DNA of 63,776 nt, filler included, from Collodictyon triciliatum (Eukaryota): NCBI GenBank assembly GCA_043381765.1. It is 5 parts of 5 records of this genome, joined end to end, with 100 filler letters (N's around TTAATTAATTAA, not from the genome) between each part and the next. Parts side by side here need not be neighbours in the genome. Positions count along the whole stretch, not along the records: positions 11,417 to 28,789 come from JBHJMP010000776.1; 4 more parts are not named here. One strand, 5' to 3'. The first letter of the stretch is position 1; each line of letters opens with the position of its first letter. Both the position numbers and the translations under genes were made by a program. The notes under the pieces were generated by a model. That model did not search any database. It saw only the letters and a list, made by a program, of their open reading frames with translations, and was not told the DNA's origin. Of this stretch, positions 25,703 to 27,790 are shown piece by piece.

Positions 25703-27790
25703 CTATTTTTTATACACTAAAATGAGTATACCATCTTTCGATTGGTAAACCTGGTGCGCTAGTATCCAAGGTCTCGCCACTTTTTTCACAAAGATTATGT
25801 AGTGGTGAAGGCTGCCAGGAAAGACCCGACAGCCTGTTATTTTAAAGAATGTGTATCCATTTTTTTGAAGGATCGAAAGAACTTTGTTGAGTATATCATT
25901 ATCGCTGTTAAAGTTCCTTATCAAGAATACACTTTGTTTACTTTCTGAGCGATTGCATTCTTAAATACGAGGCATCTATACATTTTTCTTTTCTGAATTT
26001 CCTTTCAGTTTCATATATTCCAGTTCCTTTTCGCAGTTACAGCACATCTTGGAGGTTCTAAATTCATTTATCAAAACTAACTGGTTCAAAACGTTTGGAT
26101 ACTATTTTTCGTAATCCTCTTCCGATTGTTGCCATAAAATGGTTCATCTGACATTTTCTGCTCCTGTCTCCATACCCCAGTACAACATCCTTGCCAAAAT
26201 GTCTTTTCGATCCGGTCCATAGACAATTCTTCACTTCTTTTTGTATTAATATTCTGTCTCCATATCATCTTTCGAAAAGTTCCGTGTTCATAAAATCTGG
26301 GTAGGTCTATCTGGTATCTTGATTTCATAGATACACATTCCGAAATTTTTCATAATCGACCATGCATAAATTATGTTTACTCAGTTCTGTATCTAAATCG
26401 ATTAAAGATGCTCTTGATGTCTCAAACTGCCGATTCTCTTCAAAAGTCATGTGACTATAAGAAATGGCACTTTGTAGATCTGTTGCCATGTATCCCCCTG
26501 ACGAATTGTACTTTTTTTTTCTTGCGCAAGAGTATTTTGTGATTTTTAAGAGATTTGCTATCATGTCTTCTTCGGCGTGCCGTGTAGCGTAATTGCTTAC
26601 CTGTCTCGTACACCATGTAAACCATATTAAACTTGCCTGCGTCCACTCAAACTATTTTTTTTTTTGTCTCTGATAAAGATAACTGCTCTTCGGAAAGCTC
26701 ATCTATATAAACATGTTCTTGGGGGGTTTTTTTGTTTGGTTATATTTGAATTTTGAATTTGAAATACCTTTCTTTTCAAACAATAATGACACCACCTAGC
26801 CGTCTGTTTGTATCATGTATTTAAAAGTGTAGTCTCTTTGATGAAGGACACTCTTCTTCATTTCAAAGAAATCATCCCCTAGTGTCTCTTTGCATCCTGA
26901 TATATTCTTAATTAATGATGTTTTCCCAGTTGATACCAATAGACCTATCAAACATGTGGTATCTAGAGTAACATGACACGGTATATTGTTAGTTCTTATA
27001 GGGATTGGTGGAAACAGTTTTGCTCCAATGTCCTCAAAAATGCGATTCATGTAAATCTGACATGGAATGTACTTATTTGGATTGACTTTGACATCATATT
27101 CGATACCGTTTACAATATCGCTGGGAATGATACGATTCAAATGTATTTTAGCCCATCCTTTGTATGTTGTTTCGGTATTACGAGATTATTGAAGATGGCT
27201 CTTTTTTTTTAACTTTCGTAACTCTGCCTTTTTAATAGCTTCCGTAATATTCTCATCTTTAGGTACTGTTTGGTTTATAAAGCGCAGTAACCTCTTTACA
27301 AAATGCTCCTTAATGTTACTATGATAAGCTGCTAACCTTTGCTTTGCCAAGTACGGTAATACATGAGACAGTCTAACCAACGGAAAGTGTTCTTATCGGG
27401 ACAAAAGGAATCGAAAATCATAGATAAAAAGTCGTCATCTCTTTACTCAAATCTGGATGTTTTAATCTTACGGGTCTATCTTGTGAAACTACTCCGACTG
27501 TCTTTAAAGCGTACAGAAAAAAACACATTTCATCGATTGTTGGGAGTTGTTGTGATTTCAATATGTAATATCTTGCAAACAGATAAGTGTCGGTAACTAA
27601 TTATGACACAATAAAACCGTATCGTTGATTTTGTCATAATCGTCCGCATTCTTTACAATCGACTTTAGAGATGTTTTCACATTTCGGTTGTCTGGTTCTA
27701 CAGACTTTAGATGCTCAGACCCAAGGCGTTTTCTTTTCTTTTCTTCATCTGAAAGTCTTTGTTTTACTTCTTCCTTTAGAGAACTACCAA
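25703..27790 (-). pseudogene. Decayed Fanzor1-type (TnpB-derived, RNA-guided RuvC nuclease) gene, intronless, multiple frameshifts and stops
   Basis: Colinear fragments across frames: NVKTSLKSIV, TYLFARYYIL..LPTIDE, SHVLPYLAKQRLAAYHSNIKEHFVKRLLRFINQT, PPIPIRTNNIPCHVTLDTTCL, MIQTDG*, KIV*VDAGKFNMVYM (RuvC-I), LRYTARRRR, FYEHGTFRKMIWRQ, LGYGDRSRKCQMNHFMATIGRGLRK, LINEFRTSKMCCNCEKEL (Glu just upstream of CxxC), YRCLV/ECNRSESKQSVFLIRNFNSDNDILN (RuvC-III). Element ends are approximate. Confidence 0.85.
25713..25805 (-). ncRNA. Candidate omegaRNA scaffold of the Fanzor element
   Basis: Four consecutive stem-loops ~100-190 nt 3' of RuvC-III, including UACC-A-AUC-GAAA-GAU-GGUA with a GNRA tetraloop (25729-25747). 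Position matches the known TnpB/Fanzor omegaRNA location. Expression not shown. Confidence 0.45.

Follow-up and report, generated by a model that had tools for sequence, protein, structure and literature searches.

A probable Fanzor1 pseudogene upstream of TFIIA-gamma in the genome of Collodictyon triciliatum

We analyzed a window of 63,776 nucleotides (nt) from Collodictyon triciliatum (Eukaryota; NCBI GenBank assembly GCA_043381765.1), which comprises five parts of five records joined end to end with 100 filler letters between them; "the window" denotes this whole stretch, all positions are counted along it, and positions 11,417 to 28,789 come from JBHJMP010000776.1. On its minus strand, from about 27750 to 25795, lies a run of stop-free pieces in all three frames, which we read as one decayed copy (27748-25795) of a mobile unit of about 2.1 kb whose only gene is a Fanzor1, with a probability of about 0.92. 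The features on which this reading is built are listed below, with residues numbered after P0003, an intact relative of 648 amino acids (aa) that served as the reference for alignment, and with A1 denoting a profile made from 36 proteins of the family.

25795-27748, minus strand: decayed Fanzor1 coding region, from an out-of-frame ATG (27748-27746) to a terminal TAA (25797-25795), colinear with P0003 residues 2-642
26799-27740, minus strand: N-terminal half, helical and REC-like, ending in IQTDG, recognized by the P0003 alignment and the A1 profile (DUF8286 in relatives, Pfam 38.1); broken by frameshifts at 27598-9, 27420, 27200 and 27165-6, by TAA at 27393-5 and, just past IQTDG, by TAG at 26796-8
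26614-26649, minus strand: RuvC-I motif VDAGKFNMVYM, with its catalytic Asp kept at 26643-26641 and a TGA (26647-26649) directly before it
26160-26177, minus strand: GYGDRS, at the canonical RuvC-II strand position, with Gly/Asp in place of the canonical Glu and Arg in place of the family-invariant Trp (W523)
26033-26071, minus strand: INEFRTSKMCCNC, which holds the alternative RuvC-II Glu (26065-26063), the T-S pair and the first zinc-ribbon CxxC, with a frameshift (26072) directly before it
25958-25984, minus strand: second zinc-ribbon Cys pair, degenerate, between frameshifts at 25984 and 25958-9, with Phe for C587 of P0003
25886-25924, minus strand: RuvC-III motif LIRNFNSDNDILN, with its Arg kept and its catalytic Asp (D604 of P0003, at least 90% conserved) replaced by Asn at 25915-25913
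Frameshifts in the P0003 alignment, minus strand: 27598-9, 27420, 27200, 27165-6, 26722-3, 26511, 26341-2, 26196, 26072, 25984, 25958-9 and 25867
In-frame stops in the P0003 alignment, minus strand: TAA 27393-5, TAG 26796-8, TGA 26647-9 and TAA 25837-9

The gene can be reassembled through its relatives. A 129-aa piece (26799-27185) is 62% identical to P0001 (331 aa), which stays open through the frame changes of the window and which led on to the intact P0003 plus 632 proteins of about 600-660 aa. In a frameshift-aware protein-to-DNA alignment, P0003 residues 2-642 match 27740-25798 of the minus strand in a single colinear path, with 375 of 635 codons identical (59%), 12 frameshifts of one or two bases, four in-frame stops and no insertion of the size of an intron. 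The sole ATG is out of frame with the rest, which adds a further break beside the start, and the reading stops at the TAA at 25797-5, where other copies continue. When the A1 profile was run on the 2901 six-frame fragments of the window with at least 12 aa, 11 of them matched at E<1e-3, every one within 25706-27794 of the minus strand and following each other in profile order (3-51, 52-112, 125-181, 188-315, 366-413, 407-435, 435-500, 479-523, 521-549, 558-591), the best of them again being 26799-27185 (E 2e-44); the remaining fragments lie at E 0.9 or above. Because all 11 matches fall here, in order, and nothing else falls below E 0.9, the pieces constitute one gene beyond what chance would produce, and the same scan finds no second Fanzor copy within the window. 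An earlier note on this DNA, made from the sequence alone, had proposed that the minus-strand open reading frame (ORF) fragments join across frameshifts and a few stops into one intronless protein, which the 59% identity over 635 codons, colinear with P0003, bears out; the colinear match to a single TnpB/Fanzor family that it had envisaged is what the ordered profile matches and the single P0003 path deliver, and both the alignment and A1 reproduce its order of motifs: IQTDG, KIV*VDAG, GYGD, INEFRTSKMCCNC, a degenerate second Cys pair and RNFNS. For annotation, the seven short ORFs at this place should be merged into one pseudogene and should not be called as genes.

Judged by sequence matches and by a predicted fold, the family is Fanzor1 and not Fanzor2 or TnpB. 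In the PDB sequence search, the three solved Fanzor1 proteins (from Guillardia, Parasitella and Spizellomyces) are the top three of the four matches of the 129-aa piece from the window (E 0.007-0.02), and the zinc-finger piece matches the Parasitella Fanzor1 (PpFz1 residues 1160-1188, E 0.0086), i.e., further along the chain and colinear. P0003 finds the same three proteins at E 2e-28, 3e-24 and 4e-23 and no Fanzor2, TnpB or Cas12f at E<=1; the only other PDB rows that it returns, two myoglobins at E 0.4-0.6, were set aside as chance. An AlphaFold model of P0003, made with A1, has a predicted local distance difference test score of 72.2 and a predicted template modeling (TM) score of 0.65, and is helical over residues 33-291; in a Foldseek search with this model, ranks 1-7 are all Fanzor1 chains (E 4e-25 to 6.5e-22, TM 0.48-0.58), with Cas12f at 3e-6, TnpB of ISDra2 at 2e-4 and the mimivirus Fanzor2 at 3e-4 (rank 22). 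The earlier note had likewise preferred Fanzor1 to Fanzor2; its argument from protein length is weak when taken alone, and the conclusion it reached is right by virtue of the sequence matches and the seven top-ranked folds. Pfam searches on single fragments gave a sub-threshold match of Cas12f1-like_TNB to the INEFRTSKMCCNC piece (E 0.0059) and a sub-threshold match of DUF5958 (E 0.00036) that is probably due to chance; P0001 and P0002 matched nothing in a copy of Pfam that lacks PF26935.

The catalytic core points to the same family. Across A1, D364, G521, E555, T558, S559, C562, C565, C587, C590 and R603 are invariant and D604 is kept in at least 90% of the proteins; E555, T558, S559, C562 and C565 all fall within the INEFRTSKMCCNC piece of the window. 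The published definition of the superfamily is the motif D-X(125,275)-[TS]-[TS]-X-X-[C4 zinc finger]-X(5,50)-RD, with two extra residues in Fanzor1, namely a Gly (G500) and a Glu (E536) (Bao and Jurka 2013, PMC3627910). Fanzors have Pro or Gly in the place of the canonical RuvC-II Glu, with an alternative Glu about 45 residues on (Jiang et al. 2023, PMC10530073). The window copy displays this rearrangement, with GYGD followed by NEF 34 residues on, just ahead of the CxxC, the corresponding G521 and E555 being present in 36 of the 36 family proteins; the displaced catalytic Glu that the earlier note had recognized just upstream of the CxxC thus agrees with the published account (PMC10530073). 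In the N-terminal half, a basic KKRKR patch (27740-27726, minus strand) could resemble a nuclear localization signal (NLS), and NLSs are present in Fanzors (PMC10530073).

Compared with SpuFz1, GtFz1 and PpFz1 (PDB 8GKH, 9CER, 9CF0), the window family is alike in its helical N-terminal half, the RuvC-I Asp, the RuvC-II Gly, the alternative Glu before the CxxC, the C4 zinc ribbon and the RuvC-III RD. However, P0003 is only 18-20% identical to these solved proteins in structural alignment, and the window subfamily forms a separate branch marked by DUF8286, of which the window copy is a pseudogene. With Fanzor2 (ApmFz2), TnpB (ISDra2) and Cas12f it has in common the RuvC plus zinc-ribbon core and, presumably, the RNA-guided mechanism, whereas those proteins are shorter, have a different N-terminal half and give far weaker matches.

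Measured against the superfamily motif, the window copy retains one part and has lost another. It still has the RuvC-I Asp in VDAG, the alternative Glu in NEF, the T-S pair and the first CxxC, with RTSKMCCNC lying 194 residues beyond VDAG in P0003 numbering. Lost are the Asp of RuvC-III, where RD reads RN, a Cys of the second pair (C587 read as Phe between two frameshifts, so that the C4 zinc finger is incomplete), the Trp of GDWS (read as Arg), the Gly before RuvC-I and the frame itself, there being no uninterrupted ORF across the 12 frameshifts, four internal stops and out-of-frame ATG. The TGA ahead of RuvC-I replaces a nearly invariant Gly (G362 of P0003); in the motif that follows, D364, G366 and K367 are invariant in the family, and P365 reads as Ala. 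The earlier note had concluded from this TGA and from the RuvC-III Asn that the copy is dead; both lesions are confirmed, and W523R, C587F, the frameshifts and the stops are now added to them. We accordingly regard the window copy as a descendant of the TnpB/Fanzor superfamily that is not a working member of it, and it probably has no present function.

Other copies of the unit are evident in sequencing data. No sequencing run contains half or more of the words of the stretch 25600-27900; four runs were compared with it in detail. In one run (X5), 363 contigs fall on the stretch, 23 at 99% identity or more, 80 at 95-99%, 146 at 90-95% and 114 below 90%, and together they cover 30 of 30 bins. 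Their summed depth is about 90-490 within 25754-27832, 9-13 below 25754 and 43 above 27833, with a drop on the 3' side from 185 (bin 25754-25830) to 9 (bin 25677-25753); in another run (X4), loose ends lie at 25733. Such a profile is what one expects of a repeat unit of about 2.1 kb, little more than the gene. Some X5 contigs join across internal deletions, and many differ in length from the window at or next to the places of its frameshifts (26071/2, 26196, 26340/1, 27166-8 and 27596-9). All contigs of other copies that reach 25915 (one in run X1, five in X5) differ from the window at the first letter of the codon, as in the Asp codon of the family, and all contigs at the terminal stop (two in X4, seven in X5) differ there from the letter of the window. 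Two short assembly proteins, P0315 and P0316, are 85-87% identical to the window reading and are open across 27420, 27393, 27200 and 27165. The family itself is thus not extinct and comprises multiple copies, some of them open across the breaks. It thereby resembles CMe-1A, an old Fanzor1-only repeat family (Bao and Jurka 2013, PMC3627910), which is likewise multi-copy with a unit that is essentially the Fanzor1 gene; the copies of the window family are just as widely diverged (80-99%), some are open, and the organism differs.

The nearest relatives form a clade with the window copy, consisting of P0315/6, P0001/2, P0003 with P0124, and P0166, which are 54-87% identical to the window piece, and the rest of the family, which is largely viral, stands apart from it at 33-41% identity in the N-terminal half. 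Among 1.84 billion cluster representatives, P0003 matches 3147 at E<=1e-3 and 537 at E<=1e-30. On the viral side, 415 of 542 candidate IMG/VR stretches encode a relative, on contigs of up to 289 kb, many of them with names containing "GVMAG", which we take to denote giant-virus bins. The relatives on viral contigs lie at 38-47% identity, and none of the 80 IMG/VR loci that were kept exceeds 47% to P0003; P0003 as the sole query against IMG/VR gave no match, and against metagenome contigs it gave only one distant locus (L081, 21% identity). In the Atlas, the closest clusters consist to 92-100% of viruses, chiefly Nucleocytoviricota, and have the domain PF26935 (DUF8286), and the neighboring genes in two viral loci encode a capping enzyme, Hsp70, the small subunit of ribonucleotide reductase and helicases. 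The locus is a dead Fanzor1 copy from a branch shared with giant viruses.

Eight viral loci were checked for a linked transposase, considering only ORFs of at least 120 aa just upstream of the Fanzor gene. In four of the eight, a transposase ORF with DDE_3 and HTH_28 domains lies there on the opposite strand:

L001:6638-7678, minus strand: transposase ORF, whole
L004:6645-7676, minus strand: transposase ORF, whole
L051:6053-7069, minus strand: transposase ORF, whole
L005:7130-7552, minus strand: transposase ORF, partial

The other four (L014, L016, L040 and L072) have unrelated genes at this place and no transposase, i.e., they are Fanzor-only. Among described elements, PGv-1 of Phaeocystis globosa virus is a Fanzor1 element with an IS630/Tc1/mariner transposase (Bao and Jurka 2013, PMC3627910), and an endogenous giant virus of Chlamydomonas carries Fanzor families A-C, with a Fanzor fragment on a Chlamydomonas chromosome that is 80% identical to a Fanzor borne by the giant virus (bioRxiv 10.1101/2024.09.03.611062). 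Set beside these, the viral relatives found here have the DDE_3 plus HTH transposase in half of the loci checked and are otherwise Fanzor-only, and a degraded Fanzor copy in a host chromosome fits the Chlamydomonas pattern. Unlike those giant-virus elements, the window copy was found to have no transposase, inverted repeats or TA duplication. The view of the earlier note that the family was once active in this lineage, with a possible link to a giant virus or a DNA transposon, gains support from the X5 copies, from the open P0315 and P0316 and from the viral relatives, some of which lie beside DDE_3; its word "fossil" holds for this copy and fails for the family, which is multi-copy with some copies open across the breaks.

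Beyond the last motif, the copy ends in a tail:

25733-25835, minus strand: 3' tail, consisting of the end of the frame and a short non-coding stretch, with an 11-bp G+C-rich hairpin at about 25835-25809

This tail might be a remnant of an omega RNA scaffold plus the right end of the element. The segment 25680-25900 (minus strand) folds at -56.4 kcal/mol (z -4.4; none of 200 shuffles is as stable), which we treat as a lead only. In the viral relatives, conservation extends some 85 nt past the stop codon before it breaks off abruptly, which marks the right end. A structured RNA of about 175 nt straddles the stop codon there (L016:9740-9916 and 68 other matches, alignment A7) and stops exactly at the limit of the conservation between loci. 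A model of this RNA matches the 3' end of the gene in almost every locus, L081 with its 21% identity among them. In its 69 sequences, pairing reaches 93.9% of cells, versus 48-56% with slid partners, and 29 of 48 pairs have a compensatory change against 10-15 in slid controls, figures that are favored by the alignment having been fitted to the model. This RNA is a candidate for the omega RNA scaffold and right end of the viral branch. It is established that Fanzor1 cleaves double-stranded DNA beside a short motif, guided by an omega RNA that derives from the 3' end of the locus (Saito 2023, PMC10432273).

If the frameshifts were errors of sequencing or assembly, the gene would be intact in the organism. 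Several of them do lie in homopolymers (the A-run at 27200, the C-run at 26722 and the A-run at 26511), and N gaps are frequent in the draft scaffold; yet four in-frame stops together with W523R, C587F, D604N and P365A are not errors of the indel type, and the neighboring host pieces read cleanly. Furthermore, 151-nt contigs that are 100% identical to the window occur in runs X1, X2 and X4, which are three freshwater or lake metagenomes of three studies, and they carry five of the 16 breaks of the P0003 alignment, two of which (27200 and 26511) lie in homopolymer runs:

26366-26516: contig of run X1, covers frameshift 26511
26525-26675: contig of run X1, covers TGA 26647-26649
27080-27230: contig of run X2, covers frameshifts 27200 and 27165-6
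26033-26183: contig of run X4, covers frameshift 26072

The identical contigs, the four nonsense codons and the missense changes at invariant sites make an assembly artifact very unlikely. The shares of X1, X2 and X4 over 25600-27900 are small (0.07-0.10), and their provenance gives a hint that the organism, or this exact locus, occurs in fresh water. Rescue of the frame by an unusual genetic code, programmed frameshifting or tiny introns might be imagined from the one TAA that stands opposite a Gln of P0003; we give it next to no credence, as TAA, TAG and TGA are all in frame, opposite Q, L, G and K, twelve shifts of 1-2 nt run in both directions, which neither introns nor a single recoding signal could provide, and close copies are open at the same places under the standard code.

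Two further accounts concern how the copy arrived and what it has become. That it is all that is left of an integrated giant-virus genome, and not a member of a host transposon family, would suit the abundance of relatives on viral contigs, the viral composition of the nearest Atlas clusters and the Chlamydomonas chromosomal fragment (bioRxiv 10.1101/2024.09.03.611062). We nonetheless consider it improbable: the similarity of the other copies is limited to about 25.75-27.85 kb, which is the behavior of a repeat unit and not of a large insertion, and not one of the 80 kept IMG/VR loci rises above 47% identity to P0003. Among the 20 ORF pieces scanned, the stop-free pieces of both flanks contain no viral and no transposase domain, and in place of viral-kind neighbors (capsid, polymerase etc.) there are pieces of TFIIA-gamma, PIGA, G-alpha and EF-hand proteins, TFIIA-gamma being less than 1 kb away. 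A co-opted remnant, serving as promoter or regulatory DNA of TFIIA-gamma or as the source of a non-coding RNA, would draw on its place directly upstream of that gene on the same strand and on the stability of the 3' tail relative to shuffles; we rate this as highly doubtful, as there is no sign that this particular locus is conserved, and a region that once encoded an omega RNA should fold stably in any case.

The reading of the locus as one decayed copy of a Fanzor1-only mobile unit has points against it as well. Independent support from identical contigs extends to only those five of the 16 breaks, at a depth of about 2, and the count of 12 frameshifts depends on the alignment penalties, "about a dozen" being the safer figure. 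The molecule type of run X5 is uncertain ("RNA?" is a guess), and its copies are not attributable to the genome of the window. A covariance model of the viral 3' RNA finds no match in the window with filters on or off (the best has 6.5 bits and E 0.34, at the wrong place), and around the copy there are no terminal inverted repeats, target-site duplication or transposase remnant that would reveal the kind of carrier element; the repeat search there returned only (GAAAA)n-type microsatellites and chance-level short pairs.

On the preferred reading, a Fanzor1-only unit, the following mechanism may be proposed for the intact relatives. These are proteins of 620-650 aa with an N-terminal basic patch, a helical REC-like half (DUF8286), a split RuvC in which the RuvC-II Glu has been displaced to a place immediately ahead of the zinc ribbon, and a C4 zinc ribbon. 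If it acts like characterized Fanzor1, the protein would bind an omega RNA transcribed from the 3' end of its own gene to the right end of the element, and the adjoining guide would direct the cutting of matching DNA beside a short target-adjacent motif, which may help the element to persist and spread. An RNA-guided mechanism of this kind is what we would expect of the window family. The window copy itself is likely capable of none of these steps, given the break at its start, the 12 frameshifts and four stops and the loss of the RuvC-III Asp, a zinc ligand and the Trp, and it lies in the spacer upstream of TFIIA-gamma without a transposase or recognizable ends. As for its route of arrival, we speculate that the window clade might be a giant-virus-derived lineage that multiplied in a freshwater eukaryote as a bare unit of Fanzor1 plus guide RNA with no linked transposase, a proposal that we hold to be rather unlikely as it stands. 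Were it true, the RNA-guided nuclease itself would drive the spread, via homing-like repair at the cut sites, and that organism would still have active, intact natural copies whose guide scaffold lies mostly within the 3' coding end.

Earlier work has already described Fanzor1 genes, their decayed forms in host chromosomes and their passage through giant viruses, and the locus adds a case and not a principle. It marks a DUF8286-type branch of Fanzor1 that seems to live in giant viruses and in a freshwater eukaryote, with many copies there, some of them open. Natural intact nucleases of this branch could be sought, and a clean candidate guide RNA with covariation is available from the giant-virus relatives.

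The surroundings of the copy are of host type. A TFIIA_gamma_N piece lies at 24684-24959 (minus strand, E 1.4e-12, from a domain scan of flank ORF pieces), such that the remnant is directly upstream of the N-terminal exon of TFIIA-gamma on the same strand, with that gene less than 1 kb downstream of the 3' end of the copy. Host-type gene pieces nearby, at 10214-10606, 17088-17414 and 21109-22149, match G-alpha (E 3e-11), EF-hand and PIGA, the last in at least two pieces (E 3e-25 and Glyco_transf_4); the PIGA and G-alpha matches are broken into separate short pieces. The surrounding pieces are consistent with an intron-rich eukaryotic nuclear genome. Long, purine-rich (GAAAA)n-like microsatellites flank the remnant on the same strand at 24955-25361 and 28416-28644, and an N gap lies within a TTA repeat at about 28790-28890, the scaffold being rich in such repeats and gaps. 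An Rfam scan of the whole window gave no match. Elsewhere in the window are two Cys-rich and G+C-rich open frames, for which no Pfam family was found and for one of which (32414-32998) the Atlas gave low recognition and no lead:

31666-32172, plus strand: Cys-rich frame of 169 aa
32414-32998, minus strand: Cys-rich frame of 195 aa

The two lie tail-to-tail and are paralogues, with 36% identity (E 1e-29).

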